This document shows positions 1 through 45,693 of a DNA stretch of 51,033 nt, in pieces. The DNA is taken from contig DATHQE010000268.1 of assembly GCA_035483035.1 (NCBI GenBank), positions 1-51,033 on the forward strand. The letters run 5' to 3'. Source of the DNA: Streptosporangiaceae bacterium (GTDB lineage: Bacteria; Actinomycetota; Actinomycetes; Streptosporangiales; Streptosporangiaceae). The position numbers were made by a program, and so were the translations under genes. Every line of letters starts with the position of its first letter. The first letter of the stretch is position 1. The notes beneath the pieces were generated by a model, which was given only the letters and a program-made list of their open reading frames with translations, did no database searches and was not told where the DNA came from.

Positions 1-630
1 TGCGGGACCGCGACCATAGGCAACCCCGAGACCGACCCGGAGACAATGGCCCGCACGGTCGGCAAGGCGGTCCCCGACACCGAGGTCCGCGTGGTCGATG
101 AGCGCGGCAAGCACCTGCCACCCGGCCAGAGCGGCGAGGTAGTAGTGCACGGATTCAACGTGATGCAGGGCTATTTCGAGGATCCTGAGGCCACGGCCGC
201 GGCCATCGACCCTGGCGGGTGGCTGCATACCGGCGACATCGGCACGTTCGATCCAGACGGCAATCTCCGCATCACCGATCGGCTCAAGGACATGTTCGTC
301 GTCGGCGGTTTCAATGCCTATCCGGCTGAGATCGAACAGACGATCTCCCAGCATGAGGCCGTCTCCGAGGTGCACGTCATCGGGGTACCCGACGAGCGAC
401 TGGGGGAGGTCGGCCGAGCGTACGTGATCCCGCGGCCAGGGCAGCACGTCACCGAGGAGGACATTATCGCCTTCTGCCGGCCCCGCCTGGCCAACTTCAA
501 GGTGCCACGTTCGGTGCGCATCGTGGACAACGTGCCGCGCAACGCGTCGGGGAAGGTGCTCAAATTTGACCTGCGGCGGCAGGCGGGCGAGGAGAAGGGG
601 CGGGCATCCGCAAGTGGCGACCATAACTGA
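1..630 (+). CDS. AMP-forming acyl-CoA synthetase/ligase (FadD-type, ANL superfamily), C-terminal part; 5' end lies upstream of the window
   Basis: Frame 1 is open from nt 1 to TGA 628-630. Motifs GWLHTGD, DRLKDMFVVGGFNAYPAEIE, ANFKVPR and terminal PRNASGKVLK are hallmark C-terminal motifs of adenylate-forming ligases. Confidence 0.9.
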   Translation, partial: CGTATIGNPETDPETMARTVGKAVPDTEVRVVDERGKHLPPGQSGEVVVHGFNVMQGYFEDPEATAAAIDPGGWLHTGDIGTFDPDGNLRITDRLKDMFVVGGFNAYPAEIEQTISQHEAVSEVHVIGVPDERLGEVGRAYVIPRPGQHVTEEDIIAFCRPRLANFKVPRSVRIVDNVPRNASGKVLKFDLRRQAGEEKGRASASGDHN

Positions 631-5256: not shown

Positions 5257-5260
5257 GGCC

Positions 5261-14106: not shown

Positions 14107-14161
14107 TCCCACGCGTGCCCCTGAAGTATGTGAGACGTCGTCTCGGCCCAATTGTCAGTCT

Positions 14162-15370: not shown

Positions 15371-15389
15371 CCGGCCGCTCAGCGGCCGG
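15371..15389. terminator. GC-rich hairpin at a convergent gene junction
   Basis: CCGGCCGC-tca-GCGGCCGG lies between the TAG stop 15368-15370 (+ gene) and overlaps the stop 15379-15381 of the minus-strand crotonase. The loop is very tight and there is no U tract. Confidence 0.4.
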
Positions 15390-16194: not shown

Positions 16195-16225
16195 GCGTGG
16201 GACCTTAACGCAGCCCGGTCCGCGA

Positions 16226-16239
16226 AGCAATCGCTTGCT
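16226..16239. promoter_or_regulatory. KstR2-type operator box 5: AGCAATCGCTTGCT (one mismatch)
   Basis: Lies in the 76-nt divergent region between the crotonase start (16194) and the CoA-transferase start (16271). Confidence 0.65.
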
Positions 16240-16270
16240 TGGTAGCGAAGGGCCGTGCCACCATACCCGC

Positions 16271-27554: not shown

Positions 27555-27564
27555 ATGCGCTCCG

Positions 27565-29616
27565 CTAACTCCCGAGCTCGAGATGCAGCTCACCGGTCTG
27601 CCCGACGACGGCGGCCTGCCCTGGGCGGACGATCGCCGTCGTCGTCTCGGCTTCGATGAAGGCCGGCCCGGCCACGCGCTGGCCCGCGCCTAGATCCGCC
27701 CAGCGATAGACGCTGCAGCGCACGTCCCAGCCTTCGAACACCGCGGTCTTGTGCCGGGCGGGCCGGCCGGGGGCCGGCCCGCGGGAGGCGGTGGCCGGAA
27801 CTGCCGTTGGCAGCCAGGCGTCAACGGCGACCGACAGGACCTCGACGGGCGTCTCCTCGGGTGCCGTGCCAGGGCCGATCACCCGCTCGTATCGATCGCG
27901 GAAGCGCTCGATGAGGTCCCCGGCCGTCGCGGCCGCGGGAACCTCGACCTCGATGCGGTGCAGCTGGCGGTGGAAGCGCAGCCCGGCGCTGCGGGTGACG
28001 CGGATCTCCGCGTGCGGACCCGCGCCGTGCAGCTGACGGCGAACCTCGGGCTCAAGCTCGGCCAGAGCGGCCCGGACCTGGCTGAGCGCCTCGGCTAGCG
28101 GCTGCGGGCGCAGGTCCCGCTCGGCGCGCACGCGCAGGTCACCGCACAGTGCGCCGTACGCGGACAGGCCTGCTGCGAGCGCAGGGATAATCACGCCGCG
28201 GACGCCTAGCCCGGCGGCGAACCAGGCCGCGTACTGAGGCCCGGCGCCGCCGTAGGCCAGCAGCGCGAAGTCGGCCGGGTCATGGCCGCGCTGGATCGTT
28301 GCGCGGCGAACCAGGTCGCGCATCTGCTCGCAGGCGACCTGCACGATCCCGTCCGCCGCAGCTGTCACGCTGAGCCCGAGCGGCTCGGCGATCTCCCTGC
28401 GTATCGCGTCGGTAGCGGCGTCGCCGTCCAGCTGGAGGCTGCCGCCCAGCCGGTCAATATAGCCCAGCACGACGGCTGCGTCGGTCAGCGTCGGCCGGAT
28501 ACCGCCGAGTCCGTAGCAGGCCGGTCCCGGGCTGGCCGCGGCCGTCTGCGGCCCTACGCGCAGCGACCCGAGCGCGTCGTCGATCCAGGCTATGCTGCCG
28601 CCCCCGGTGCCAATCGACTCGATGTCGACCGCCCTTACCGCGAGCGGCAGTCGGCTGATCGTCGGCCGGCGGGCGTACTGAGGCTCGCCGTCGATGATCA
28701 GCCCGACGTCGAAGCTGGTGCCGCCGACGTCGGCGGCGATGACGCTGGCGAAGCCGGCCTGGGCGCACAGCCGGCGTGCGGCGGCGACACCGCCAGCCGG
28801 CCCGGACCGCAGCGTGTGGACCGGTTGCTGCCGGGCAGCCTGGGCCGGCTGGACTCCGCCGCCCATCCGCACCACGAGGAGCGTTCCGCCGAAGCCAAGC
28901 TCACGCAGCTGCTTTTCCAGCCGCTCCAGGTATGAGCTCACCAGTGGCGCAATGTAGGCATCGATGACCGCGGTGGTCATCCGCTCGTACTCACCGATCC
29001 GGGACGCAAGGCGGTTTGATGTCGTGACCGGCACACCGGGCGCGAGTTCTGCGACTAGCTCGCGGACTCGGTCCTCATGCACAGGATTGGCCGGCGACCA
29101 CAACAGGCAGACCGCCAGGGACCGCACCCCGCGGCGCAGCAGCCCGGCGATCGCTGCCCTGACCTGATCATCGTCCAGATCGGCCAGCACGGCGCCGGAA
29201 GCGTCGACGCGACCGGCGACGCCGACGATGTCACGCGGATCAACGAGAACGTCCGGCTTGGCCCATCGGGCTGGCGCCTGCCGGTCGGCAATCGGCAGAT
29301 CGTGGATCTTGTTCGACTTCGCGATGGACAGCGTCGATTCAAAGCCCTCGGTCGTGATCAGGCCGACCCGAGCGCCCGCGCCCGTCAGCACAGCGTTCAA
29401 GCCAACCGTCGTGCCATGCGCCAGGACGTCTGTGGTCGCGAGCAGCCCGGCGAGATCGGTGCCGACCATCGGTGCGGCCCGGCGCAACGCAGCCAGCACA
29501 CCGTCTTCGAGGTGGCCGGGAGTCGACAGCGCCTTGGCAACGGCCAGCTGTCCGCTGCCGGTGACCACGACGACGTCCGTGAACGTGCCGCCCGTGTCGA
29601 CGCCGATCAGTTGCAT
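27565..29616 (-). CDS. Hydantoinase A/oxoprolinase-family ATP-binding subunit
   Basis: 683 aa. N-terminal MQLIGVDTGGTFTDVVV ASKHA-fold phosphate motif and a second ADVGGTSFDVG motif. Confidence 0.9.
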   Translation of the reverse strand: MQLIGVDTGGTFTDVVVVTGSGQLAVAKALSTPGHLEDGVLAALRRAAPMVGTDLAGLLATTDVLAHGTTVGLNAVLTGAGARVGLITTEGFESTLSIAKSNKIHDLPIADRQAPARWAKPDVLVDPRDIVGVAGRVDASGAVLADLDDDQVRAAIAGLLRRGVRSLAVCLLWSPANPVHEDRVRELVAELAPGVPVTTSNRLASRIGEYERMTTAVIDAYIAPLVSSYLERLEKQLRELGFGGTLLVVRMGGGVQPAQAARQQPVHTLRSGPAGGVAAARRLCAQAGFASVIAADVGGTSFDVGLIIDGEPQYARRPTISRLPLAVRAVDIESIGTGGGSIAWIDDALGSLRVGPQTAAASPGPACYGLGGIRPTLTDAAVVLGYIDRLGGSLQLDGDAATDAIRREIAEPLGLSVTAAADGIVQVACEQMRDLVRRATIQRGHDPADFALLAYGGAGPQYAAWFAAGLGVRGVIIPALAAGLSAYGALCGDLRVRAERDLRPQPLAEALSQVRAALAELEPEVRRQLHGAGPHAEIRVTRSAGLRFHRQLHRIEVEVPAAATAGDLIERFRDRYERVIGPGTAPEETPVEVLSVAVDAWLPTAVPATASRGPAPGRPARHKTAVFEGWDVRCSVYRWADLGAGQRVAGPAFIEAETTTAIVRPGQAAVVGQTGELHLELGS

Positions 29617-32743: not shown

Positions 32744-34022
32744 GCCAGCACCGCTGCTGTCGGGTGTCCGGGTGCTTGAGGCATCGCTGCTGGAGCCAGC
32801 GGCCCTCGGCATGATCCTCGCCGATCTCGGCGCTGACGTGATCAAGGTGGAGCCACCTGGCGGGGACTACGTGCGCACCATGGCCTGGCCGATCATCGAG
32901 GGTGTCTCGCTGCTGCACTGGCACGTGAATCGCGGCAAGCGCAGCGTCGAGCTAGACCTGCGCACGGAGGCCGGTGTCTCGGTGTTCCTGGACCTGGCCG
33001 CGCAGAGCGACATCGTGATCGAGGCCATGCGACCGGGCGCGCTCGCCCGGCGCGGCATCACCGTCGAGCGGCTGCGCGAGCGGCGGCCGGATCTGGTGAT
33101 CTGCAACGTCTCCGGCTGGGGCAGCACCGGTCCGTACCGCAATATCCCGTCACACGGCATCGGGTTCGACGTGTGGGCTGGACTCGCGGAGCCGGCTACC
33201 GACGACGAGGGGTTCGCCTACATGCCGGACCACACCACCGTCGGCGTGCGGGTGACGCCGGTGTGGGGCGCGCTCGCCGTCTGTGCTGCGCTGCTGCGGG
33301 CCCGCGCGACCGGAGTTGGCGCCCAGATCGACCTGGCGCAAAGCGATGTGGCAGCGATCACGAACTGGTTCCGGATCGAGGGAGCACGCGCTTACGAGCG
33401 TCCGGAGGAAGAAGTGACTGGCAACCCCGCCGACGGGGGACAGCGGCGTGATCCGGGCATCACCGGCATGCTGGGGTCGGTGCGCTACCAGTACTACCGG
33501 ACCAGCGACGGCTACATTCTGCTGATGGCGTCCGAGCGGGAGTTCTGGCAGAACTTCTGCGCTGCCGTGAACCGCATGGACCTGTTCGAGGGGCGAACCG
33601 GCAGCAGGTACGCCGACCACGCCCGCGGCGACCGGGTGCTACAGCGAGAATTGCAGCAGCTGTTCGTGACCCGGACCACGGCGGAGTGGGTGGCACTGGG
33701 CAATTCGGCCAACTGCCCGATTGCCAAAGTGAACGACGCCACCTCAATCACTGCCGACCCGGCATTCGCGGAGCGGCTGCCGTGGCTGCCTGCCGCCGAG
33801 TTCGGCACCGACCTGATGCCGTCCCCGGTCGGCCTCATCGGCGAGCAACGGGTCGCCTCGCGGCGGGCGCCGCGGCCGGGCGAGCACACCGCCGAGGTGC
33901 TGCGTGAGGTGCTGGGCGTGACCGGCGAGCGGCTGGCAGAGCTGCGCGCGGCCGGCGCGGTGCCGGATACGCACCAGCCGGATGCGCACCAGCCGGAGAA
34001 GTCGCCCGGAGCGACGCAGTGA
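32736..34022 (+). CDS. Family III CoA-transferase (CaiB/BaiF family) with repeat-containing C-terminal tail
   Basis: ATG 32736 (ATGACTGA overlap) or ATG 32721. LLSGVRVLEASLLEPAALGMILADLGADVIKVEPPGG and EAMRPGALARRGI are present. The tail is PDTHQPDAHQPEKSP. Confidence 0.9.
   Translation: MTEPAPLLSGVRVLEASLLEPAALGMILADLGADVIKVEPPGGDYVRTMAWPIIEGVSLLHWHVNRGKRSVELDLRTEAGVSVFLDLAAQSDIVIEAMRPGALARRGITVERLRERRPDLVICNVSGWGSTGPYRNIPSHGIGFDVWAGLAEPATDDEGFAYMPDHTTVGVRVTPVWGALAVCAALLRARATGVGAQIDLAQSDVAAITNWFRIEGARAYERPEEEVTGNPADGGQRRDPGITGMLGSVRYQYYRTSDGYILLMASEREFWQNFCAAVNRMDLFEGRTGSRYADHARGDRVLQRELQQLFVTRTTAEWVALGNSANCPIAKVNDATSITADPAFAERLPWLPAAEFGTDLMPSPVGLIGEQRVASRRAPRPGEHTAEVLREVLGVTGERLAELRAAGAVPDTHQPDAHQPEKSPGATQ
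33969..33998 (+). repeat. 15-nt tandem repeat x2 (acGCACCAGCCGGAt / gcGCACCAGCCGGAg)
   Basis: Read directly. Encodes THQPD-AHQPE at the 3' end of the CoA-transferase gene. A partial third unit (CCGGAT) precedes it. Confidence 0.85.
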
Positions 34023-34070
34023 ACGAGAGCGATGCAGTGAACGAGAGCGACAGGGTGAACGAGAAGGTGT
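34017..34070 (+). repeat. 18-nt tandem repeat x3 spanning a stop/start junction (CAGTGAACGAGAGCGAnn)
   Basis: The units are cagtgaacgagagcgatg, cagtgaacgagagcgaca and gggtgaacgagaaggtgt. Each carries an in-frame GTG, and they encode VNESDA-VNESDR-VNEKVY. Confidence 0.85.
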
Positions 34071-34789
34071 ACATCCACGAGCTCATCGACATCATCGGCC
34101 AGAACCGGGCCAGGTACATGTATCACATGACCGCCAACTGGAGCCCGATCGGTCAAGAGGAGCGCGGCCAGCAGTGCTACGGCGTCTGGGGGGTAGTGGG
34201 CAGCACCGCCCGGTGGCCGCAAGTCGTGAATATCTGGGAGGAGGACGGCTTCGACGGGCTGGCGCGGTCGTTCCAGCACGAGCTCGGGCACGACACTTTG
34301 CAGGATCCCAAGCTGGCGAAATGGTGGGCGCAGGCCGCGGGCTATCGGTCTGGCGGCTTCGATCGCATCCTGGTGCCGGCGCCGTGGATGCGCACCGGCG
34401 CTGAGGCCATTGCCGACGGGGTGGCCGGCGAAGTGCACGCGCATGTGCAGGTGCAGCTGCGCCCCGGTGCCGCGCCCGAGTACCTGGCCGCTGCGCACGA
34501 CGGCTCGAAGGCAATGACGTCACGGTTCGGCTGGCAGCTGACTGGCGCATGGCGCACAGCGATGGCCGGCGACGCGGAGTGCATCCTGCTGTGGACCATC
34601 CCGACCTGGCACGCCTGGGCCGAAGCCGAGAAGGCGCTGACCGCCGAGCCCGGGCTTGGCCGGCTGGGCGCCGAGCTGGACGTACTTAGCGTCCACCGGT
34701 TCCTGATGGTCGACGCGCCGCTGTCCCCATTCCGGATTCGCCGACAGCCAGCCCGTTCCGATCGCACGGACGCCTACAGCGAGGTGTGA
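34019..34789 (+). CDS. Hypothetical protein, possibly tandem NIPSNAP-like (dimeric alpha/beta barrel) domains
   Basis: GTGA overlap with the upstream stop. Two ~100-aa halves each have a pattern like VYIHELIDI...YGVWGVVGSTARWPQVVNIWEEDGF, reminiscent of NIPSNAP proteins. The functional call is weak, and the true start could be any of three repeated GTGs. Confidence 0.5.
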   Translation: MNESDAVNESDRVNEKVYIHELIDIIGQNRARYMYHMTANWSPIGQEERGQQCYGVWGVVGSTARWPQVVNIWEEDGFDGLARSFQHELGHDTLQDPKLAKWWAQAAGYRSGGFDRILVPAPWMRTGAEAIADGVAGEVHAHVQVQLRPGAAPEYLAAAHDGSKAMTSRFGWQLTGAWRTAMAGDAECILLWTIPTWHAWAEAEKALTAEPGLGRLGAELDVLSVHRFLMVDAPLSPFRIRRQPARSDRTDAYSEV

Positions 34790-34889: not shown

Positions 34890-34903
34890 ATCAAGCGCTT
34901 GCT
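34890..34903. promoter_or_regulatory. KstR2-type operator box 9: ATCAAGCGCTTGCT
   Basis: Perfect core. It overlaps a TACCAT -10-like hexamer (34903-34908), 46 nt upstream of the ipdA-like start. Confidence 0.8.
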
Positions 34904-34948
34904 ACCATACGACGGGGCTCGCGGTCGTGACAGGAGATAGCAGGCGCA

Positions 34949-35842
34949 GTGGCTGACAAACGGATGTCTGAGGATGATGTCGTCGGGCGGCTACGGTCGG
35001 GCATGACGATCGGCATCGGTGGCTGGGGATCGCGCCGCAAGCCCATGTCGCTGGTCCGTGCCATGCTGCGCAGCGACCTGCGCGACCTCACCGTTGTCTC
35101 TTATGGTGGCCCGGACGTCGGAATGCTGTGCGCCGCGGGCAAGGTGCGCCGGCTCATCTACGGCTTCGTGTCGCTCGACTCGATCCCGCTCGAGCCGCAT
35201 TTCCAGGCCGCACGGCAGTCGGCGGCGATCGAGGTCACCGAGTATGACGAGGGAATGCTGCAGTGGGCCCTCTACGCGGCTGCGTGCCGGCTGCCGTTCC
35301 TTCCCACGAGGACGGGTCTTGGCTCGGACGTGATGCGGGTCAACCCGCAGCTGCGCACGGTGCGGTCACCCTACGACGACGGCGCCGAGCTGGTGGCCGT
35401 GCCGGCGCTGCCGCTTGATGCCGCGCTGGTGCACCTGAACCGGGCCGACGCGGCAGGCAATGCCCAGTTCCTGGGTGACGACCTCTACTTCGACGACCTG
35501 TTCTGCTCGGCCGCGGACCAGGCATTCATCTCCTGCGAACGGATCGTGCCGACCGCCGAGCTGGCCGCGGGCGGCCTGCACACGCTGCGGGTGCACCGGT
35601 GGATGGCCACGGGAGTGGTGGAGGCGCCGAACGGCGCGCACTTCACCTCCTGCGCGCCCGACTATCAGCGGGACGAGGCGTTTCAGCTGGAGTACGTCAC
35701 CGCGGCCAAGGACGCTCAGGCTTGGTCGCAGTTCGTCGACACTTACCTCACTGGTGGCGAAGCGAGCTACCAGGCGGCACTGGCAGCCCGCATGACAGCA
35801 GCCCGCCCAACAGCAGCCCGCGAGACCGAGTTGACGGCGTGA
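34949..35842 (+). CDS. ipdA: CoA-transferase-fold subunit A, IpdA-like (glutaconate CoA-transferase family)
   Basis: GTG start. LRSGMTIGIGGWGSRRKPMSLVRAMLRSDLRDLTVVSYGGPDVGMLCAAGKVRRLIYGFVSLDS closely matches my recollection of M. tuberculosis Rv3551. The symbol is tentative. Confidence 0.8.
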   Translation: MADKRMSEDDVVGRLRSGMTIGIGGWGSRRKPMSLVRAMLRSDLRDLTVVSYGGPDVGMLCAAGKVRRLIYGFVSLDSIPLEPHFQAARQSAAIEVTEYDEGMLQWALYAAACRLPFLPTRTGLGSDVMRVNPQLRTVRSPYDDGAELVAVPALPLDAALVHLNRADAAGNAQFLGDDLYFDDLFCSAADQAFISCERIVPTAELAAGGLHTLRVHRWMATGVVEAPNGAHFTSCAPDYQRDEAFQLEYVTAAKDAQAWSQFVDTYLTGGEASYQAALAARMTAARPTAARETELTA

Positions 35843-36633
35843 CCGGCGTCGCTGAGGTCGCAGACGATCTGACCGGCGCGACCGCATCGCGGGCCGAGGT
35901 GTGCGTCGTGGCCTGCGCCGAAGCGTGGCGCGGTGATGGCGAGATCGCCGCGAGCCCGATGGGCACGATCCCGACCGCTGCCGCGAGGCTGGCCAGGGCC
36001 ACATTCGAGCCGGATCTCCTGCTGACCGACGGCGAGGCCCGCTACGTGACGGGGACGTGGGCGCTCGGCCAGCCGGCGTCCGGCGCGGTAGAGGGCTGGA
36101 TCCCGTTCCGGTCGGTCTTTGACCTGGCGTGGGGCGGGCGGCGGCACGTCATGATGAGCCCGGCGCAGATCGACCGCTACGGCAACGCCAACATCTCGGC
36201 CATCGGCGATTTCGACCGGCCCGCCCGCCAGCTACTCGGCGTCCGCGGCGCACCCGGCAACACCGTCAACCATGCCACCAGCTACTGGGTGCCGCGGCAT
36301 CAGCCGCGCGTATTCGTACCGCGGGTCGACATGATCTCCGGGGTCGGCTACGACCGCGCCGCCACAGCGGGCCCGGACGCGAGCCGGTTCCTCGAGCTGC
36401 GCCGCGTCGTGACGAACCTGGCTGTGCTCGACTTCGGCGGTCCTGGCCACAGCATGCGGCTGGTCTCGGTGCACCCGTGGGCGATGGCGGACGAGGTCGT
36501 CGCCGCGACCGGCTTCGAGCTCGCGATCGACGGCGACGTCCCTGACACGCGCCTGCCGTCGGCGGACGAACTGCGGCTGCTTCGCGAGGTCATCGACCCG
36601 TCCGGCCTGTGCGACCGTGAGGTGCCCGCGTGA
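35839..36633 (+). CDS. ipdB: CoA-transferase-fold subunit B, IpdB-like
   Basis: ORF 35599-36633. GTG 35839 is in a GTGA overlap with the ipdA-like stop. SRAEVCVVACAEAWRGDGEIAASPMG and IDRYGNANISAIGD are typical of beta subunits. The symbol is tentative. Confidence 0.8.
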   Translation: MTGVAEVADDLTGATASRAEVCVVACAEAWRGDGEIAASPMGTIPTAAARLARATFEPDLLLTDGEARYVTGTWALGQPASGAVEGWIPFRSVFDLAWGGRRHVMMSPAQIDRYGNANISAIGDFDRPARQLLGVRGAPGNTVNHATSYWVPRHQPRVFVPRVDMISGVGYDRAATAGPDASRFLELRRVVTNLAVLDFGGPGHSMRLVSVHPWAMADEVVAATGFELAIDGDVPDTRLPSADELRLLREVIDPSGLCDREVPA

Positions 36634-37412
36634 CCGGCCCGGCACCGCGGTCGCACCCGAGCCACGGGCTCCTGGCGGGCCGCACTGTTCTCGTCACGGC
36701 GGCGGCGGGCACCGGTATCGGGTTTGCGACCGCGCGCCGCTGCGCCGAGGAAGGCGCCCGCGTCGTGATCAGCGACAAGCACCAGCGCCGCCTCGGCGAG
36801 GCCGCGGCAGAACTTGCCGGGATCACCGGCGAGCCACCGCTGGCGGTGCCCTGCGACGTGACCTCAGAGGCCGACGTCCAGCACCTGTTTCAGGCGGCGA
36901 TCGACGCATGCGGTCACCTTGACGTGGTGGTGAACAACGCGGGGCTTGGCGGCAACGCAGCGCTGGTGGAGATGACCGATGAGCAGTGGAGCGTCGTCCT
37001 CGACGTGACCCTGAACGGGACGTTCCGGTGCACCAGAGCCGCGCTGCGGCACATGATCCCGCGCGGCACCGGCGTGATCGTCAACAACGCGTCAGTGATC
37101 GGCTGGCGGGCCCAGGCGGGCCAGTGCCATTACGCAGCCGCCAAGGCCGGGGTGATGGCGCTGACGCGGTGTGCCGCGATGGAGGCCGCGCCGGCCGGTG
37201 TACGGGTCAACGCCGTCTCCCCGAGCATCGCCATGCACCCGTTCCTCGCGAAGGTCAGCAGCGAGGAACTACTGGCTGACCTGTCAGCGGCAGAGGCGTT
37301 CGGCCGGGCAGCCGAGCCGTGGGAAGTCGCCGACGTGATCGTGTTCCTCGCCAGCGACTACTCCTCCTACATGACCGGCGAGATCGTCTCGGTAAGCAGC
37401 CAACATCCGTGA
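36630..37412 (+). CDS. SDR, IpdF-like (TAAAGTGIG subgroup)
   Basis: GTGA overlap. VLVTAAAGTGIGFATARR, NNAGLGG, HYAAAKAGVMALTRC and C-terminal FLASDYSSYMTGEIVSVSSQHP resemble my recollection of Rv3559c. Confidence 0.8.
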   Translation: MTGPAPRSHPSHGLLAGRTVLVTAAAGTGIGFATARRCAEEGARVVISDKHQRRLGEAAAELAGITGEPPLAVPCDVTSEADVQHLFQAAIDACGHLDVVVNNAGLGGNAALVEMTDEQWSVVLDVTLNGTFRCTRAALRHMIPRGTGVIVNNASVIGWRAQAGQCHYAAAKAGVMALTRCAAMEAAPAGVRVNAVSPSIAMHPFLAKVSSEELLADLSAAEAFGRAAEPWEVADVIVFLASDYSSYMTGEIVSVSSQHP

Positions 37413-37419
37413 CGGAGGA

Positions 37420-37875
37420 ATGATGGCCAACCCGGCAGCCCAGGGAGCGGTAGGTGCACCGTTCATGGTCGAGATCGAGCGGGGCAAGATCCGCGAGTTC
37501 GCCGCTGCGACTCACTCTGCCAACCCCGCCTACTGGCACGATGAGAACCCTGTGGTTCCGCCCACGTTCCTGACCACCCAGATGTTCTGGGAGTCCTGGG
37601 CGGGCCCGGAGAGCAGCCCGTGGCACCTGGTCGACCTCGACCAGCAGCGTGGTGTGCATGCCGAGCAGGAATACATCTTCTATGGCCCGCCGCCGCGAGC
37701 GGGCGCCCGGCTGACGGCCCAGTCGCGGATTGGTGACGTCTACACCAAGCAGGGCCGCAGCGGGCCGCTGACCTTTGCGGTGATGATCACCGAGTACCGA
37801 GACGAGTCGGGACGGCTGGTCGCGGAGGCGAAGCTGACGGGCGTGGAGGCCGCGCCGCCGGGGGACCGGTCATGA
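37420..37875 (+). CDS. MaoC N-terminal-type hotdog subunit of a heteromeric enoyl-CoA hydratase
   Basis: GGAGGA precedes ATG 37420/37423. FMVEIERGKIREFAAATHSANPAYW parallels the N half of the fused MaoC at 20587-21477 and ChsH/HadA-type subunits. Confidence 0.8.
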   Translation: MMANPAAQGAVGAPFMVEIERGKIREFAAATHSANPAYWHDENPVVPPTFLTTQMFWESWAGPESSPWHLVDLDQQRGVHAEQEYIFYGPPPRAGARLTAQSRIGDVYTKQGRSGPLTFAVMITEYRDESGRLVAEAKLTGVEAAPPGDRS

Positions 37876-38285
37876 CCGCCACGCCTCCGCCGCCTCCGCC
37901 GCCTCCGCCGCTCGTCGTCGGGCCGCTCACCCGCACCGACTTCGTTCGCTACCAGGGCGCATCCGGAGACTTCAACCCGCTGCATCACGACGAGACGTTC
38001 GCACGCGCGGCCGGGTACGACGCGCCGCTGGCGGTGGGCATGCTCAACGCCGGGCTGCTGGCTACCTACGCGACCAACTGGCTGGGCGCCGAGGCGGTCC
38101 GCCGGTTCAAGATCCGGTTCCGCGGCAGGGTGTGGCCGGGCGACACCGTCACCTGCACCGGTGCACTTGTGCGCGAGTACGAGCAGGACGGCAGTCAGCT
38201 CGTGGACGTCGAGCTCACCTGCACGAGCCAGGCTGGTGTCGTCGCGGTCCAGGCGTGGGCTACCTTCGCGCGGGAGCCGGCGTGA
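37872..38285 (+). CDS. MaoC dehydratase hotdog subunit with N-terminal Pro9 tract
   Basis: ATGA overlap. RYQGASGDFNPLHHDETFARAAGY is the MaoC hydratase motif. The N-terminus is MTATPPPPPPPPPLVVG. Confidence 0.85.
   Translation: MTATPPPPPPPPPLVVGPLTRTDFVRYQGASGDFNPLHHDETFARAAGYDAPLAVGMLNAGLLATYATNWLGAEAVRRFKIRFRGRVWPGDTVTCTGALVREYEQDGSQLVDVELTCTSQAGVVAVQAWATFAREPA
37884..37910 (+). repeat. 9-nt tandem repeat (CCTCCGCCG)x3 encoding nine consecutive prolines
   Basis: Read directly at codons 5-13 of the MaoC gene. Confidence 0.9.
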
Positions 38286-38300
38286 TCACGAGCACGGTGC

Positions 38301-38360
38301 CAGCGCGGAACGCCCGACAGCGGAACGCCCGGCAGCTGGACGCCCGGCAGCGGGACGAGA
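38301..38360 (+). repeat. About four copies of a 15-nt tandem repeat (CAGCGGAACGCCCGG-like) filling an intergenic spacer
   Basis: The units are cagcgcggaacgcccga, cagcggaacgcccgg, cagctggacgcccgg and cagcgggacgaga, between the MaoC stop (38285) and the SDR start (38362). Confidence 0.85.
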
Positions 38361-38361
38361 A

Positions 38362-39237
38362 GTGAGCACGCCAGCCACCGGCCGTGTGGTCATCGTGACC
38401 GGCGCTGGGCAAGGCCTGGGCCGCGAGCACGCGCTCGCCTTCGGTCGCGACAGCGCTCGGGTTGTCGTGAACGACGTCAGCGCGGCGGCCGTGGACGTAG
38501 CGGGCGCCATAGTGGAGGCCGGCGGCACTGCGGTCGCGAGCGTGGGTGATTGCAGCGACTGGGACTATGCGCAGCAGCTGGTGCGTACTGCGGTCGAGGC
38601 CTATGGCGGTCTGGACATCCTGGTCAACAACGCTGGCATCAACCGCGATCGAATGCTGGTCGGGATGTCTGAGGCGGAGTGGGATACGGTTATTCGCGTT
38701 GATCTGAAGGGGCACTTCGCGCCGATGAGGCACGCCGCAGCGTACTGGCGCGAGCGCAGCAAAGCCGGCGACACGCTGCACGCGCGAATTGTCAACACCA
38801 GCTCAGGCGCCGGACTGATGGGCAGCGTCGGCCAGGGCAACTACGCGGCAGCGAAGGCTGGTATCGCCGCGCTGACGCAGGTTGCTGCTGTCGAGTTTGG
38901 CCGGTACGGGGTTACCGTCAACGCGATTGCTCCCTCGGCCCGCACGGCCATGACCGAGGCGGTGTTCGCCGAGCAGATGCGCGCGCCCGAGTCCGGATTC
39001 GACGTGATGCACCCGGCCAACGTCTCGCCGCTGGTGGTGTGGCTGGCCAGCGTCGATGCGGGGGACGTCACCGGCCGCATCTTCGAGATCGAGGGCGGTC
39101 GACTGAGCGTCGCAGACGGCTGGCAGCACGGCGAGCCGGTGGTGAAGCAAGCCCGCTGGCGATCCGGTGAGCTGGGTCCGCAGGTCCGCGCCCTGCTGGC
39201 GGCGGCTCCGCCACCGGCCCCGGTCTACGGAGCCTGA
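38362..39237 (+). CDS. SDR resembling the dehydrogenase domain of MFE-2/Hsd4A-type (R)-3-hydroxyacyl-CoA dehydrogenases
   Basis: ORF 38161-39237. GTG 38362 is the only start after the upstream stop. VTGAGQGLGREHALAF, NNAGINRDRML, NYAAAKAGIAALT and the C-terminal extension are typical of this subgroup. Confidence 0.8.
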   Translation: MSTPATGRVVIVTGAGQGLGREHALAFGRDSARVVVNDVSAAAVDVAGAIVEAGGTAVASVGDCSDWDYAQQLVRTAVEAYGGLDILVNNAGINRDRMLVGMSEAEWDTVIRVDLKGHFAPMRHAAAYWRERSKAGDTLHARIVNTSSGAGLMGSVGQGNYAAAKAGIAALTQVAAVEFGRYGVTVNAIAPSARTAMTEAVFAEQMRAPESGFDVMHPANVSPLVVWLASVDAGDVTGRIFEIEGGRLSVADGWQHGEPVVKQARWRSGELGPQVRALLAAAPPPAPVYGA

Positions 39238-39239
39238 CG

Positions 39240-40451
39240 ATGCATGCCCCGGACGAGCAGGCCCCGGCCAAGCAGGCCGCGGACAAGCAAGCCCCGGACG
39301 AGCAGGCCTTTCGGGCTGAGGTGCGCGACTGGCTTTCCGCGAACCTGTCCGGCGAGTTCGCCCCGCTGGTCGGCAGCGGCGGTCCAGGTCGGGAGCACGA
39401 GTTCATCGAGCAGCGGATGGCGTGGGAACGGCGACTGGGCGCGGATGGCTGGATCGGCATCGGCTGGCCGGTAAGCGCTGGCGGTCGCGGGCTGCCATGG
39501 AGCCATCAGGTCATCTTCTATGAGGAATACGCCCGCGCCGGGGCGCCGGCCAGAGTCGGTCACATGGGGGAGCAGTTGCTCGGCCCGACGCTGCTGATGT
39601 TCGGCACTGCCGAGCAACGCGGCAGGTTCCTGCCCGGAATCCTCGCCGGGACGCAGCTGTGGTGCCAGGGCTATTCCGAGCCTGGCGCCGGCTCCGACTT
39701 GGCTGCGGTCGCCACCAGGGCCCGGCTCGATGGCGGCGAGTGGCATGTCGACGGGCAGAAGGTGTGGACATCGCTCGCGCAGTTTGCGGACTGGTGTTTC
39801 GTGCTGGCGCGGACCGAGCCGGCGGCGCAGCGTCATCGCGGCCTGTCCTACCTGCTCGTGCCGATGCGCCAGCCCGGCATCGAGGTCCGCCCGATTGTGC
39901 AGCTGACCGGCACAGCCGAGTTCAACGAGGTGTTCTTCGACGACGCCCGAGCCGCGGCCGGAGATGTCGTCGGCGTGCCCGGTGATGGCTGGCGGGTGGC
40001 GATGGGGACGCTGGCCGTCGAGCGGGGCGTATCAACGTTCGGGCAGCAGCTGGGCTTTCAGCGCGAGTTCGACGCGGTCCTCGTGACCGCGAGGTCCACC
40101 GGCGCGCTGGAGGATCCGGACATCGCGGCGCGGATCGCCGAGGCGTGGGTCGGCCTGCAGGTCATGCGGTACACGGCACTGGCCGCGCTCGACCGGCCAG
40201 CTGCGGACGTGCCGGGCGCGGAGGTGAGCATTAACAAGCTCATCTGGGGGACCTGGCATCAGCGGCTCGGCGAGCTCGCCGTCGACGTGGCCGGAGCCGC
40301 GGCGACCGTTGTCGGCGCTGGCTATGACCTCGACAACGCGCAGCGGCTGTTCCTGTACACGAAGGCCGACACCATCTATGGCGGATCCGCCGAGATCCAG
40401 CGGAATGTGATCGCCGAGCGGCTCCTTGGCCTGCCGCGGGAGGCGCGCTGA
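39240..40451 (+). CDS. Acyl-CoA dehydrogenase (FadE-type), first of an adjacent pair, with N-terminal pentapeptide repeats
   Basis: FRAEVRDWLSANL, WCQGYSEPGAGSDLAA and YGGSAEIQRNVIAERLLGLP are ACAD hallmarks. Confidence 0.9.
   Translation: MHAPDEQAPAKQAADKQAPDEQAFRAEVRDWLSANLSGEFAPLVGSGGPGREHEFIEQRMAWERRLGADGWIGIGWPVSAGGRGLPWSHQVIFYEEYARAGAPARVGHMGEQLLGPTLLMFGTAEQRGRFLPGILAGTQLWCQGYSEPGAGSDLAAVATRARLDGGEWHVDGQKVWTSLAQFADWCFVLARTEPAAQRHRGLSYLLVPMRQPGIEVRPIVQLTGTAEFNEVFFDDARAAAGDVVGVPGDGWRVAMGTLAVERGVSTFGQQLGFQREFDAVLVTARSTGALEDPDIAARIAEAWVGLQVMRYTALAALDRPAADVPGAEVSINKLIWGTWHQRLGELAVDVAGAAATVVGAGYDLDNAQRLFLYTKADTIYGGSAEIQRNVIAERLLGLPREAR
39249..39308 (+). repeat. 15-nt tandem repeat x4 (CCGGACGAGCAGGCC-like) at codons 4-23 of the ACAD gene
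   Basis: The units are ccggacgagcaggcc, ccggccaagcaggcc, gcggacaagcaagcc and ccggacgagcaggcc, encoding PDEQA-PAKQA-ADKQA-PDEQA. Confidence 0.9.
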
Positions 40452-41500
40452 TGGAGTTCGCCGACACGCCCGAGCAGGCCCTGCTGCGCGACACGGTGCG
40501 GGCGTTCGCCGCCCGGCACGGCACGCCGGAGCAGGTCCGGGCGACGATGACCGGGCCCACGGGGTGCGACCATCACACCTGGGAACGGCTGGCGCGTGAG
40601 CTCGGTCTCACCGCCCTCGCGGTGCCCGAACGCTACGGTGGCGCAGGCGCCGGACCCGCCGAGGTCGCGATCGCAGTCGAGGAGCTAGGCCGGGTGCTGC
40701 TGCCGTCACCGTACCTGTCCACGGCGGTCGTGGCGCTCGCCCTGTCCGATCAGGCCGACCCGGCGTTCGCCGAGCGCTACCTGCCGGGTCTCGCTGACGG
40801 CTCGCTCATCGGGGCACTCGCCCTGGACGCCGACGTCGTCTCGGCCGGCGGCACGATTAGCGGCGTAGCCCGTCACGTGGTCGATGGCGGGCTCGCGGGC
40901 CTGCTGCTAGTTCGCGCTGGCGACCAGCTGATGGCCGTGTCCGCCGCGGACACCGCCATCGAGCAGCTGAACACGCTGGACCAGACGCGTCGCCAGGCGC
41001 TCGTACGCTTCGACCAGACTCCCGCACTGCTGGCTGGACCCGCGGCTCCGGTGATCGCGATGCAGCGGGTGCTGCTTGCCGCCGAGTGCGCCGCGGCGGC
41101 CCGGCACTGCCTCGAGGTGACGGTCGAGTACCTGAAGACCCGGCGCCAGTTCGGTCGGCCGATCGGCTCGTTCCAGGCACTCAAGCACCGCGCGGCGGAC
41201 CTCGCGGTGGCGGTCGAGTCTGCACACGCAACCGCGCGGGCGGCGGTCTGGACAGCGGCCACCGACCCGGCCGGGCTGGCCACGCTGGCACCGCTCGCGG
41301 CCCTGCACTGCTCGCGCACCTTTGTCCAGGTGGCCGCGGAGATGATTCAGCTGCACGGCGGGATCGGCTTCACCTGGGAACACGAAACTCACCTGTACCT
41401 CAAGCGCGCCAAGTCCACTCAGCTGCTGCTCGGACCCGTCAGCGGGTTGCGGACGGAGATCGCCGGGCAGGCAGATCTACTTCCGGGCCGACGGGGCTAA
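40451..41500 (+). CDS. Acyl-CoA dehydrogenase-fold protein, second of the pair (probable partner subunit)
   Basis: 1-nt overlap (TGATG). RRQFGRPIGSFQALKHRAADL and QLHGGIGFTWEHETHLYLKRA are typical. It is shorter than the first gene, as in heterotetrameric steroid-type ACAD pairs. Confidence 0.85.
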   Translation: MEFADTPEQALLRDTVRAFAARHGTPEQVRATMTGPTGCDHHTWERLARELGLTALAVPERYGGAGAGPAEVAIAVEELGRVLLPSPYLSTAVVALALSDQADPAFAERYLPGLADGSLIGALALDADVVSAGGTISGVARHVVDGGLAGLLLVRAGDQLMAVSAADTAIEQLNTLDQTRRQALVRFDQTPALLAGPAAPVIAMQRVLLAAECAAAARHCLEVTVEYLKTRRQFGRPIGSFQALKHRAADLAVAVESAHATARAAVWTAATDPAGLATLAPLAALHCSRTFVQVAAEMIQLHGGIGFTWEHETHLYLKRAKSTQLLLGPVSGLRTEIAGQADLLPGRRG

Positions 41501-41504
41501 TCCG

Positions 41505-42122
41505 ATGGGCGGCTGCTACAGCATCGACGGCGTCGTTCCGGTCGTTCACCCGACAGCATTTGTCCACCCGGACGCGGTGCTGATCGGCGACGTGCGGATC
41601 GGGCCAGGGTGCTACATCGGGCCGCTGGCCTCGCTGCGCGGTGACCTCGGCACGATCAGCATTGGCGCGGGCGCCAACATCCAGGACTCGTGCGTCCTGC
41701 ACTGCTTCCCCGGCCGTGAGCTTGTCGTCGAGGACGACGGCCACATCGGACATGCGGTGGTCCTGCACGGCTGCCGGGTCGGCCGGGGCGCGCTCGTCGG
41801 CATCAACGCCGTACTCATGGACGGGGCGGTCGTCGGGACGAGGTCGTTCATCGGCGCGTGCAGCTTCGTTCCCGCAGACATGGCGATACCCGACGGCTGG
41901 CTGGCCGTCGGCTCGCCCGCCCGGATCGTACGCGCTCTGACTGAGCAGGAGATGTCGTGGAAGGCCAACGGAACCGCGGTGTATCAGGAGCTCGCGGCGC
42001 GCTCAGCCGCGACGCTGAGCGCCGTCACCCCGCTGACCGAGCTCGACGCCGGCCGGCCCGCCCTCGCGGTAGACGCAGCCCGCGCCGTGCCGCTTCGGCA
42101 GTACCGCCAGCAGCGGGGCTGA
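41505..42122 (+). CDS. Left-handed beta-helix hexapeptide-repeat protein, gamma-carbonic anhydrase/PaaY/CaiE family
   Basis: IDGVVPVVHPTAFVHPDAVLIGDVRIGPGCYIGPLASLRGD...IGAGANIQDSCVLH is the classic pattern of this family. Confidence 0.85.
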   Translation: MGGCYSIDGVVPVVHPTAFVHPDAVLIGDVRIGPGCYIGPLASLRGDLGTISIGAGANIQDSCVLHCFPGRELVVEDDGHIGHAVVLHGCRVGRGALVGINAVLMDGAVVGTRSFIGACSFVPADMAIPDGWLAVGSPARIVRALTEQEMSWKANGTAVYQELAARSAATLSAVTPLTELDAGRPALAVDAARAVPLRQYRQQRG

Positions 42123-42151: not shown

Positions 42152-42649
42152 TCACACGCGATAGAGCGGGTCATCGCGGTCGCGAGTGCCACTCGGCCCC
42201 GTTCCCTCTTTCGGCAGGTACCGTCCGGCATCGGATCGAGTCCACTCACGCACAGCCCAGCGCTCGGCGATCGCCCACCGGCCATCGCGGTGCTCCATCC
42301 GGTCGATGTAGCGGAAACCGCTGGTGAAGTTGCGACGCGGGTCGTCTGCTGGCTCGCCCCAGTGCACGGCGGTGCCGTAGGTCTCAGCCCGCGCCCAGTC
42401 GCCGTCGACCTCGGCATAGTGGTTACCGACGATGTGCATGGTCCCGGCGAACCGCGACAGCGCGGCCCGCACCCACGGCACGTATTCCTCTACTGTCCCG
42501 TCGAAGCCGGTGTGGTGGTCTAGCGCGCCCGGGTGATAGCAGGCGCGGACTAGATCCAGGTCGAGGCGGTCCACGCCGCGGCAGTAGCGCAGTACGACGT
42601 CGTGGATCTCCTGCCTGGCCAGCAGGCCCGCCACCGGCTCGGTCGTCAC
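42152..42649 (-). CDS. NTF2-fold / SnoaL_4-like protein
   Basis: ORF 42152-42793. GTG 42649 is in a GTGA overlap with the upstream SDR stop. LLARQEIHDVVLRYCRGVDRLDLDLVRACYHPGA and DRMEHRDGRWAIAERW are typical. Confidence 0.75.
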   Translation of the reverse strand: MTTEPVAGLLARQEIHDVVLRYCRGVDRLDLDLVRACYHPGALDHHTGFDGTVEEYVPWVRAALSRFAGTMHIVGNHYAEVDGDWARAETYGTAVHWGEPADDPRRNFTSGFRYIDRMEHRDGRWAIAERWAVREWTRSDAGRYLPKEGTGPSGTRDRDDPLYRV

Positions 42650-43498: not shown

Positions 43499-44167
43499 TC
43501 AGGCTTTCCGCGCCTTGGCGGAGCCTACGCTGACAGACCCGTTGGATTTCCTTGACACCTGCGCCGGTACGCCGCCGTCGTTCTTCCTCGCCGCGAACCC
43601 GTTCAGGAAGATCGAAGTGATGTCTTCGGCCAGCTGCGCCGTCGTGTAGGGCCCCTCGGGCCGGTGCCAGCGGATCGACAGCCAGACCGCGTCGCGCAGA
43701 AGCCGGTAAAACACGCGGGGCGGGATGTCGTCCCGGAAGCTGCCGTCGGCCACGCCGGCCTCGATCACTTGCAGCCAGGTCTGCTGCACGTCGGCCACAG
43801 CGACCTGGACGTGCTCGAAGCCAGGCATGTCCCGCATGAACTGGCCCTCGTTCTGGTAGATCGCCTGAGCGTGCGGTTGCTCCTCGGCCACCTGGAGCGA
43901 CGTGACCACCAGGTCGTGCAGGCTCTCCGCGGGACTCTTCCCCTCCGCCAGCACCGACGCGTAGCACGACCTGATGGAGTCCAGGTAGCGAGTCAGCAGC
44001 TCATCGATGATGGTGTCCTTTGAGGGAAAATAGTGATAAAGGCTGCCCGAGAAAACGCCGACCGCCTCGGCGATCTGCCGCACGGTGGTGGCTCGCAGCC
44101 CCCGCCGCGCGAACAACTCGGCTGCGGTAGAGAGGATCAGCTCGCGCTTGTCCTGAACCTCAGTCAT
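43499..44167 (-). CDS. kstR2: TetR-family regulator, KstR2-like (acyl-CoA-responsive FadR/KstR2 subgroup)
   Basis: RRGLRATTVRQIAEAVGVFSGSLYHYFPSKDTIIDELL, HAQAIYQNEGQ and FYRLLRDAVWLSIRWHRPEGP track my recollection of Rv3557c. The symbol is tentative, and orthology versus paralogy is unresolved. Confidence 0.8.
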   Translation of the reverse strand: MTEVQDKRELILSTAAELFARRGLRATTVRQIAEAVGVFSGSLYHYFPSKDTIIDELLTRYLDSIRSCYASVLAEGKSPAESLHDLVVTSLQVAEEQPHAQAIYQNEGQFMRDMPGFEHVQVAVADVQQTWLQVIEAGVADGSFRDDIPPRVFYRLLRDAVWLSIRWHRPEGPYTTAQLAEDITSIFLNGFAARKNDGGVPAQVSRKSNGSVSVGSAKARKA

Positions 44168-44234: not shown

Positions 44235-44248
44235 ATCTAACGCTTGCT
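44235..44248. promoter_or_regulatory. KstR2-type operator box 10: ATCTAACGCTTGCT (degenerate left half)
   Basis: About 70 nt upstream of the kstR2-like start (44167, minus strand). The right half CGCTTGCT is intact. Confidence 0.5.
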
Positions 44249-45213: not shown

Positions 45214-45693
45214 TCAATCGGATTCAGGCCGATGCGGCAGAACGAAGTGGCGCGAGAGATCGCCCTCCAGATCGCGGAAGTCGCGTCGCTCGGCGAACCG
45301 CCAGCGCCCGTTGACCTTCTCGAAGGTGTCCTCGTGTCGGCTTGCAACAATGACCTGCAGCGGGAACCCTGGCAATGCCTGCACGGCTGTCGCGTAGCTA
45401 TTAGCTGTCGCGCGCTGACCGTCGTCGCTCACTCGCACGTCGACGTTAGTGATCAGGTGATGGGTTCGCGGGCTGCCGTCGTACAGCTGCAGACCGGTCG
45501 CCCACAGCTCGCGCAGCATCTTCCGGCCTGAGATCACGTGGCCCTCGGAGGACACGACTGACGCGTGCGCGAACAATTCCACCACCCCGTCGATGTCACC
45601 GCGGTCGATGCGGTCGGCATACGAGTGCACCAGGGTACGGATCTCGTCCCGATCGTCGGCCGCAGTCATCGCGGTCGGGTGCTGACTCGGCAC
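45214..45693 (-). CDS. NTF2-fold / SnoaL-like protein
   Basis: GTG start with AGGAGG 4 nt upstream. DRDEIRTLVHSYADRIDRGDIDGVVELFA and FEKVNGRWRFAERR are typical of SnoaL-like proteins. Confidence 0.75.
   Translation of the reverse strand: MPSQHPTAMTAADDRDEIRTLVHSYADRIDRGDIDGVVELFAHASVVSSEGHVISGRKMLRELWATGLQLYDGSPRTHHLITNVDVRVSDDGQRATANSYATAVQALPGFPLQVIVASRHEDTFEKVNGRWRFAERRDFRDLEGDLSRHFVLPHRPESD

Follow-up and report, generated by a model that had tools for sequence, protein, structure and literature searches.

Positions 34949-42122 of contig DATHQE010000268.1 (assembly GCA_035483035.1, a Streptosporangiaceae bacterium) carry a nine-gene operon that opens with homologues of the ring-cleaving enzyme IpdAB, and the question it raises is whether such an operon serves a known steroid pathway or a new one. 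By the window we mean the whole stretch of 51,033 nt that was analysed. The original prediction, made from the letters alone, favoured a variant pathway for a bulky alicyclic acyl-CoA, with IpdAB-like ring cleavage in a new context. Our analysis of gene content, family membership, operator and repressor, and synteny, all of them observed directly, makes it probable that the region is the core operon of KstR2-controlled degradation of HIP in a high-GC actinobacterium that is uncultured and Streptosporangiaceae-like. Rather than a new pathway, it represents a rearranged copy of the known actinobacterial HIP gene set, its unusual point being that it has no ipdC and no echA20 of the PRK07938 type. 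This reading extends the KstR2/HIP pathway to uncultured soil bacteria of the Streptosporangiaceae kind.

The DNA has a GC content of about 69% across the window. Sequences identical to its proteins were found in soil metagenome contigs only, and the closest public genomes are metagenome-assembled genomes (MAGs) of Streptosporangiaceae, whose IpdA is 84-86% identical to that of the window. Domains were called by Pfam, families by NCBIfam equivalog cut-offs and structural relatives by sequence comparison with the PDB. The survey of relatives comprised the 80 best ipdA loci, cited below by their L numbers; ordered gene lists were made for all 80, using as probes the window proteins and the proteins of two Pfam-annotated relatives (80%-identical). 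Counts given over 58 loci refer to those reaching at least 8 kb beyond ipdB, while ipdC following ipdB was counted over 73 relatives and the box upstream of ipdA over 79 loci.

Identity of IpdAB

The first two genes of the operon are:

34949..35842 (+), ipdA, predicted alpha subunit of the COCHEA-CoA ring-C hydrolase, 297 aa; PF01144, PDB matches, Glu105 motif
35839..36633 (+), ipdB, predicted beta subunit, 264 aa; matches to PDB 6CO6_B and 6CON_B, no (S)ENG

From domain content they could be read as an ordinary class I CoA-transferase (glutaconate or 3-oxoacid) within an operon for fatty or dicarboxylic acid metabolism, as Pfam shows the CoA_trans fold only and the source databases label homologues 'glutaconate CoA-transferase'. 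PDB comparisons and motifs led us to reject this identity. IpdA matched 6CO6_A of Rhodococcus jostii RHA1 with E=2.7e-104 (351.8 bits) and 6CON_A of Mycobacterium tuberculosis (Mtb) with 3e-98, while the glutaconate CoA-transferase subunit GctA reached only 2.5e-19 (73 bits); for IpdB the values were 3.9e-86 (292.1 bits) with 6CO6_B, 1.4e-85 with 6CON_B of Mtb and only 1.9e-13 (53.8 bits) with GctB. The E-values are therefore about 85 (alpha) and 73 (beta) orders better for IpdAB than for GctAB. Identity to the RHA1 subunits is 63% (IpdA) and 56% (IpdB).

The motifs point the same way. Glu105 of the alpha subunit is retained in 'DEGM', with 'YDEGML' of the window aligned to 'MDEGMV' of RHA1, and PDB entry 6COJ is the same sequence with the aligned Glu changed to Ala ('MDAGMV'). 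Crowe and colleagues reportedly identified, in 2018, this Glu105 as the catalytic residue of IpdA. In class I CoA-transferases the (S)ENG motif of the beta subunit holds the thioester-forming Glu; it was not found in the IpdB translation, which has no ENG anywhere in its 264 aa, and the matching stretch reads LLTDGEA, like IpdB of RHA1 and Mtb. By these comparisons the first two genes encode a true IpdAB rather than an ordinary CoA-transferase, as had been predicted, and with the KstR2 operator and regulon context described below also speaking against it, a CoA-transferase operon appears next to impossible.

Compared with the 80 relatives and RHA1, the window IpdAB retains 159 of 162 near-invariant columns, IpdA departing at one of 108. 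In a neighbour-joining tree built on IpdAB of the window and its relatives, the pair falls within a clade of Streptosporangiaceae MAGs whose other members carry ipdC-ipdF-echA20. A separate 'IpdA2B2-type' clade was considered for the window and rejected; the proteins group by taxonomy with Streptosporangiaceae MAGs having complete clusters, and the 80 nearest homologues are all about equally distant from RHA1 IpdA (60-67%).

KstR2 operator and repressor homologue

The features that place the operon under a regulator are:

34890..34903, KstR2-type operator ATCAAGCGCTTGCT, 45 nt 5' of the ipdA start, fitting AnCAAGnnCTTGnT
43499..44167 (-), KstR2 homologue, TetR repressor; PDB 2IBD 1.3e-45, Mtb KstR2 4W97 4e-44, next TetR 1.5e-19
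44235..44248, KstR2-type box ATCTAACGCTTGCT with 2 mismatches, upstream of kstR2
46..630 (+), fadD3-type HIP-CoA ligase, 3' end, truncated at the left edge of the window; top NCBIfam model 'FadD3 family acyl-CoA ligase', scoring 273.9 bits over the C-terminal 194 aa

HIP is what remains of the steroid C and D rings, and its breakdown is controlled by KstR2 (PMC5380842); the published KstR2 operator is the 14-bp palindrome AnCAAGnnCTTGnT (Kendall 2010, PMC3068626). A hairpin and then the operator box precede ipdA, and 39 of 79 related loci have the same box in the 320 nt preceding ipdA. Across the window the core CAAGnnCTTG occurs 6 times (0.28 expected); the 14-mer with at most 2 mismatches gives 9 sites, and with the box at 30584, found by the core scan only, the total comes to about 10 (0.5 expected), at 1892, 4036, 4258, 14162, 16226, 19663, 30584, 34890, 44235 and 45044. 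The KstR2 homologue is encoded 1.4 kb downstream of the operon, and the box at 44235 is the probable site of its autoregulation.

Because operator, KstR2 homologue and FadD3-family ligase occur together, we assign the operon to the KstR2 regulon and take it to be under KstR2 control. The new context of the original prediction is not supported: the operator stands before ipdA, kstR2 and fadD3 adjoin, and all gene types of the operon except the PaaY-like one recur beside ipdAB in many Actinomycetota.

Operon structure and predicted functions

The remaining features of the operon are:

36630..37412 (+), IpdF-type short-chain dehydrogenase/reductase (SDR), 260 aa, 5-oxo/5-hydroxy HIP/HIC-CoA oxidoreductase type; NCBIfam PRK07831 equivalog, 440.9 bits, cut-off 336
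37420..37875 (+), MaoC/hotdog subunit a (MaoCa), predicted non-catalytic, 151 aa; PF13452, weak HadA match, 'HSANPAY' replacing GDxNPxH
37872..38285 (+), MaoC/hotdog subunit b (MaoCb), predicted catalytic, 137 aa; PF01575, top PDB matches HadB subunits (3e-15), SGDFNPLHHD
38305..38357, tandem repeat, 15 nt x 3.5, consensus GCGGAACGCCCGGCA, TRF score 78, filling the MaoCb-SDR spacer
38362..39237 (+), (3R)-hydroxyacyl-CoA dehydrogenase SDR of Rv3548c/ScdE type, 291 aa; PRK07791 428 bits, cut-off 373
39240..40451 (+), acyl-CoA dehydrogenase (ACAD) alpha subunit, 403 aa, probably IpdE1/FadE30-type; three ACAD domains (N, M, C)
40451..41500 (+), ACAD beta subunit, 349 aa, probably IpdE2-type; N and C domains only, no middle-domain match
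41505..42122 (+), PaaY/CaiE-like hexapeptide protein (gamma-carbonic-anhydrase fold), putative acyl-CoA thioesterase; TIGR02287, CaiE, PDB 8GPM

All nine open reading frames (ORFs) are present on the plus strand, between 34949 and 42122, with the domain content first listed for them. The tight packing predicted is real, but overlaps join the genes at four junctions only, the others being three gaps of 2-7 nt and one 76-nt spacer. A GTGA overlap couples ipdA to ipdB and ipdB to the IpdF-type SDR; after a gap of 7 nt, MaoCa and MaoCb overlap by ATGA. The 76 nt between MaoCb and the second SDR form the sole long spacer, followed by a gap of 2 nt before the ACAD alpha gene, a 1-nt TGATG overlap within the ACAD pair and 4 nt before the PaaY-like gene. 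The sixth gene does not overlap MaoCb, as it starts with GTG at 38362 (291 aa), the start also called on independent metagenome contigs.

The IpdF-like assignment of the third gene stood well above the family cut-off. SDRs of the PRK07831 type are the kind adjoining ipdAB and fadE30-like genes, and orthologues 60-87% identical lie within the ipdAB clusters of 47 of 58 loci. The two MaoC genes are adjacent single-hotdog genes in a HadAB-like arrangement: GDxNPxH occurs in MaoCb only, while MaoCa is without a hydratase motif and its matches are limited to HadA/FAS1_DH models. Together with the ATGA coupling, this supports the predicted heteromeric hydratase, of the HadAB or ChsH1-ChsH2 type.

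The second SDR had been called Hsd4A/MFE-2-like, in agreement with its PRK07791 score and with its matches to 3QLJ (2e-108), 2ET6 (1e-85), the (3R)-hydroxyacyl-CoA dehydrogenase domain of yeast MFE-2, and 7LG9 (2e-63), which we take to be Mtb ChsB1. As it is 73% identical to the SDR adjoining echA20 in the Streptomyces spiralis ipdABC cluster, we place it in the Rv3548c/ScdE type.

For the two ACAD genes, the top PDB matches of both products are chains of 6WY8/6WY9 and 4X28 (for the alpha subunit 6WY9 chain A, 7.8e-53, and 4X28 chain A, 3.1e-45), entries with two different ACAD chains, which are presumably alpha2beta2 ACADs. At the catalytic-base position (IVD-type), the translations read ER in alpha ('AVERG') and QR in beta ('MQRV'). 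With the 1-nt overlap and the missing middle-domain match in beta, these data support an alpha/beta pair of the heterotetrameric steroid type, as predicted, and its type is probably IpdE1-IpdE2 (FadE30-FadE33): IpdE2 is the top NCBIfam model of the beta subunit, although under its cut-off, orthologues of the alpha subunit (55-61%) lie directly upstream of ipdF in Acidimicrobiia, and fadE30 and ipdF are also neighbours in RHA1. The use of 6WY8/6WY9 (Tcur3481/3483) as IpdE1-IpdE2 itself was dropped, as the PDB names are generic, and the entries served solely for the two-chain pairing; a plasmid tblastn search for sequences named IpdE2 by PGAP likewise returned only generic ACAD names.

The last gene product fits the PaaY/CaiE-like description in its family matches and in its match to the gamma-carbonic anhydrase 8GPM (2e-60). 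No paa genes were found near it, and homologues (53-58%) adjoin ipdAB in three loci only (L046, L056 and L083). E. coli PaaY is the model for a CoA-salvaging thioesterase role, and by analogy we infer the same role for this protein.

From homology and linkage we infer the following enzyme steps. FadD3, at the left edge, would form HIP-CoA, which would free the KstR2 homologue from the operator at 34890. The operon could then provide one full round of beta-oxidation of the HIP-CoA side chain, in which the IpdF-type SDR would interconvert the 5-oxo and 5-hydroxy forms, the IpdE1/E2-like ACAD pair would desaturate the propionyl side chain, the MaoCa/MaoCb heteromer, an analogue of the MaoC-family ScdD of Comamonas, would add water with R stereochemistry, and the Rv3548c/ScdE-type SDR would oxidize the (3R)-hydroxyacyl-CoA. 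The FadA6-type thiolase whose gene lies a little past the left edge would then remove acetyl-CoA. IpdAB, by way of the alpha-subunit Glu105, would act later in the retro-Claisen hydrolysis of the six-membered ring (COCHEA-CoA), and the PaaY-like protein would probably hydrolyse dead-end CoA thioesters, recycling the CoA.

For R. jostii RHA1, and for actinobacteria, the HIP side-chain hydratase is listed as 'unknown', while the dehydrogenase is given as RS22710, the Rv3548c orthologue (PMC8399759, PMC5380842). From the tight linkage within our operon, two steps of this side chain may be assigned to a heteromeric MaoC hydratase and a (3R)-hydroxyacyl-CoA dehydrogenase of the Rv3548c type, which makes the MaoC pair a candidate for the hydratase. 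The assignment would apply to the 29 of 80 related loci that have the MaoC pair, linked as ipdF-MaoCa-MaoCb, including Rhodococcus loci of the ipdA2B2 type.

Gene order in related loci

The survey across Actinomycetota found the known gene set in a shared order. In non-mycolate members the common order is ipdA-ipdB-ipdC-(TIM barrel-SDR)-ipdF-(MaoCa-MaoCb)-echA20 (PRK07938)-ACAD-ACAD-ECH (PRK08290)-(Rv3548c-type SDR)-ACADa-ACADb, with a divergent SDR, thiolase/fadD3 and kstR2 nearby. Among the 58 loci that reach far enough, 47 have ipdF and 43 an echA20-type gene. The window has this order minus ipdC and minus echA20-ACAD-ACAD-ECH, plus the PaaY-like gene, and its arrangement is best described from the alignment of loci as a derived form of the common one from which two blocks were lost. 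In the first of these losses it departs from nearly all others, as ipdC stands directly 3' of ipdB in 71 of 73 relatives, the exceptions being L009 and L045. One Micromonosporaceae MAG (CAYTMR01) has two ipdAB loci: L045, window-like with ipdAB-ipdF-MaoCab and without ipdC, and L056, with ipdABC and a PaaY-like gene nearby.

Two missing blocks may also be the mark of a decaying remnant of a HIP cluster, in which essential genes were lost and the pathway is no longer complete. The tandem repeat of the long spacer, which lies where relatives have echA20-ACAD-ACAD-ECH and might serve in regulation or mark the scar of a deletion, would suit such a history. Yet the nine ORFs are intact, with a coding GC content at third codon positions (GC3) of 82-88%, translational coupling and operator are preserved, the invariant residues of IpdAB are kept and the operon is 99.7-99.8% identical among independent assemblies of several samples. 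Since the ORFs are intact, coupled and nearly identical across assemblies, we regard decay as very improbable.

Relatives also show which other genes accompany ipd clusters. A conserved arrangement in Acidimicrobiia (L019-L026, L030, L036, L038, L039, L048) combines LivHGF-amidohydrolase_2-ACADa-ipdF / SDR / echA20-ipdABC / family-III CoA-transferase, its amidohydrolase_2 being about 50% identical to the product of window 13243-14151 and its family-III CoA-transferase about 58% to that of 9136-10377; amidohydrolase and CoA-transferase are therefore recurrent ipd partners across classes. An LLM+SDR pair, a g09-like CoA-transferase, a g13-like amidohydrolase, Liv transporters and a CoAT3+256-aa pair likewise flank clusters with ipdABC and echA20.

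Absent genes and adjoining contigs

The absence of ipdC, echA20 and a thiolase from the window, as first noted, was upheld by tblastn with IpdC, EchA20-type crotonase and thiolases of close relatives: IpdC and the thiolases had no homologue in the window, and the two crotonases of the window match the EchA20-type query at 29-33% only and miss the PRK07938 cut-off. That the missing genes lie just outside proved true in part, namely for the thiolase and perhaps for the echA20 block, while ipdC was not seen.

On the left, a full fadD3 (542 aa) of the same population is found on contig L092, and contig L169 matches FadD3 residues 1-174 at 99% identity. L169 also carries, at 4410-5587, a FadA6-type thiolase that shares 78% identity with its counterpart in the ipdABC cluster of S. 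spiralis. The thiolase gene is divergent from fadD3, and an exact KstR2 box, ATCAAGCGCTTGGT, separates the two. Farther left on the contig come an SDR, an epimerase-like ORF and genes for two further AMP-binding ligases.

On the right, a 20.6-kb contig (JGI 3300050821), read as a gene table, encodes an identical LivG. Past the Liv transporter come genes for Amidohydro_2, for two ACADs, the first with three domains and the second with the C domain only, and for a crotonase of 265 aa, so the cluster extends at least 10 kb past the right edge of the window. It is plausible that this ACAD pair and crotonase stand in for the lost echA20-ACAD-ACAD-ECH block. Given the loss of ipdC and of the echA20 block, ring desaturation, ring-D hydrolysis and MOODA-CoA oxidation must be encoded elsewhere. 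The other strand of the right contig carries a class II aldolase, an AMP-binding ligase, an alpha/beta-hydrolase and two SDRs.

Several observations weigh against HIP degradation as the function of the region. An ipdC of the NMO type was not seen in about 67 kb, made up of the window, 5.6 kb on the left and the Pfam gene table of about 10 kb on the right, and no PRK07938-type echA20 was found in the window or L169, the 265-aa crotonase of the right contig being known from the gene table alone. A homologue search with IpdC of the closest MAG returned thousands of soil sequences, at most 95% identical and none attributable to the genome of the window. The link between L169 and the window is 99% protein identity through a bridging contig and not overlapping DNA. 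Two gene products score below their family cut-offs: the ACAD beta subunit has IpdE2 as its top NCBIfam model, at 257.6 bits with a cut-off of 450 (a paralogous ACAD beta of relatives scores just 118.6 bits), and the last gene product reaches 284.6 bits on PaaY (TIGR02287), with a cut-off of 319.6, and 231 bits on CaiE. Many genes of the regulon are without a known role in HIP catabolism. Finally, IpdB has Trp214 (36478-36480) where Gly is invariant in 81 of 81 relatives, turning HPG into HPW; as G214W is seen in five independent assemblies, it is not an assembly error.

These points can be joined into another explanation, a paralogous and specialised regulon of the KstR2 type for a HIP-like alicyclic acyl-CoA, in which IpdAB works without IpdC and EchA20. 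Its substrate might be hydroxylated HIP derived from bile acids, or else scavenged HIP-like acids or a terpenoid unrelated to steroids, and its candidates for preparing the ring are the crotonases at 11036-12040 and 15379-16512, the F420-type LLMs, amidohydrolase_2, the family-III CoA-transferases and the carboxylase-like hydantoinase pair. The missing ipdC and PRK07938 crotonase and the unusual IpdB residue would suit such a regulon, as would KstR2 boxes before many non-canonical genes and two Liv-type uptake systems. A pairing of an ipdC-less with an ipdABC locus is seen in the Micromonosporaceae MAG, and paralogous sets are known from Rhodococcus (Prescottella) equi (ipdA2B2, PMC3161971) and Nocardioides simplex (a second ipdAB, PMC7807495). 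However, in the tree the window IpdAB falls among orthologues of complete clusters and not in a clade apart, very few of its invariant residues are changed, fadD3 and a FadA6-type thiolase are in place, and large KstR2 regulons are already known, that of N. simplex having 29 predicted operons. Most of the 'extra' genes, moreover, flank clusters of relatives that have both ipdC and echA20, and for this reason do not substitute for them. We therefore consider a specialised regulon unlikely. A more specific form, in which Liv-type ABC transporters import HIP-like or other alicyclic acids and other enzymes of a KstR2 regulon enlarged to over 60 kb prepare the ring for IpdAB without IpdC or EchA20, is quite doubtful; if true, it would be an alternative route into retro-Claisen ring opening of the IpdAB type, and G214W in IpdB could reflect an altered substrate.

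HIP degradation under KstR2 thus remains the reading we prefer. Of the variant pathway first proposed, there stand the missing ipdC, a feature shared with 2 of 73 other loci, and the missing PRK07938-type echA20, but nothing shows a variant route. A missing ipdC and a regulon of such size deserve mention and alone do not demonstrate new chemistry. Worth taking further are the MaoC pair as hydratase candidate, the G214W change of IpdB, the rarity of a locus without ipdC and the regulon size.

Comparison with known systems

In Mtb and R. jostii RHA1 the HIP system comprises ipdAB, ipdC, ipdF, echA20, fadA6, fadD3, fadE30-33, Rv3548c, Rv3549c and kstR2. Our region shares with this KstR2 regulon IpdAB with its catalytic Glu, KstR2, AnCAAGnnCTTGnT operators, FadD3, the SDRs of the IpdF and Rv3548c types, alpha/beta ACADs and a FadA6-type thiolase beside fadD3. 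In contrast to Mtb and RHA1, a single operon of nine genes unites the shared genes except the thiolase and fadD3 and holds two additions, a PaaY-like gene and the heteromeric MaoC hydratase; ipdC and echA20 are unlinked, and the regulon is much larger, with about 10 boxes in 51 kb.

Similar in layout are the common ipdABC super-operons of non-mycolate Actinomycetota, among them those of MAG OY970235 (L088), Streptomyces spiralis (L087), Micromonospora, Pseudonocardia and Actinokineospora, which share the order ipdAB...ipdF-MaoCa-MaoCb...Rv3548c-type SDR-ACADa-ACADb, the divergent SDR with kstR2 and the box upstream of ipdA, at 70-87% identity. The window differs from them in the absence of ipdC and echA20-ACAD-ACAD-ECH (PRK08290) and in the PaaY gene at the operon end.

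In the scd cluster of Comamonas testosteroni TA441, ScdC1C2 are an ACAD, ScdD a MaoC-family hydratase, ScdE a dehydrogenase and ScdF a thiolase (bioRxiv 10.1101/2025.11.20.689525; PMC8399759). One-to-one counterparts can be named: IpdAB for ScdL1L2, the IpdF-type SDR for ScdG, the ACAD pair for ScdC1C2, MaoC for ScdD, the (3R)-hydroxyacyl-CoA dehydrogenase for ScdE and the thiolase for ScdF. ScdD is predicted to be a homodimer, whereas the window has two separate subunits; the regulator is TesR in TA441 and KstR2 here, and no counterparts of ScdK or ScdY are linked in the window.

The secondary ipdAB sets of R. equi (ipdA2B2) and N. simplex (KR76_25105/25110) lie outside the main cholesterol cluster, with echA20 unlinked. 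The likely R. equi counterpart in our survey (L032, from a strain other than that of the paper) is 74%/66% identical to the window and 62%/52% to RHA1 IpdAB, and carries the MaoC pair, as the window does. Such Rhodococcus-type loci, unlike the window, have ipdC right after ipdB and are without the IpdE-like ACAD pair, and the window IpdAB does not group with them in the tree.

Other genes of the regulon

Nearly the whole window from 1892 to 45057 resembles one expanded regulon of the KstR2 type. Boxed genes outside the Mtb regulon include two Liv-type ABC transporters, four family-III CoA-transferases, four amidohydrolase_2 genes, two crotonases, two LLM oxidoreductases (one of the F420 TIGR03619 type) and several SDR and SnoaL_4 genes; an ADP-forming acyl-CoA synthetase also belongs to the boxed set. 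Downstream of the operon, convergent with it or beyond, lie two further genes:

42152..42649 (-), SnoaL_4/NTF2-like protein, convergent with the operon; PF13577, 70% homologue just upstream of ipdA in L057
42646..43455 (-), SDR conserved beside HIP clusters, tentatively Rv3549c-type; 71% to the SDR of the S. spiralis ipdABC cluster, present in most related loci

SnoaL_4/NTF2-like genes occur three times across the regulon, at 566-1063 (+), 42152-42649 (-) and 45214-45693 (-). SteC of C. testosteroni TA441 is a SnoaL/NTF2 dehydratase acting on the C12 hydroxyl of bile-acid-derived intermediates (bioRxiv 10.1101/2025.11.20.689525), and by this analogy the three genes hint at processing of hydroxylated HIP derivatives.

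A hydantoinase A/B pair at 25401-29616 (-) has caprolactamase and acetophenone carboxylase subunits as its top named relatives, both far under the cut-offs; an ATP-dependent ketone- or lactam-opening enzyme in a KstR2-boxed region has no known HIP role. Directly upstream of ipdA, a 256-aa ORF at 34019-34789 (+) is the final gene of an acyl-CoA synthetase/CoA-transferase operon. Its GC3 is coding-like, Pfam and NCBIfam searches gave no match, and a homologue (65%) stands beside the same CoA-transferase near ipdA in the MAG locus L088.

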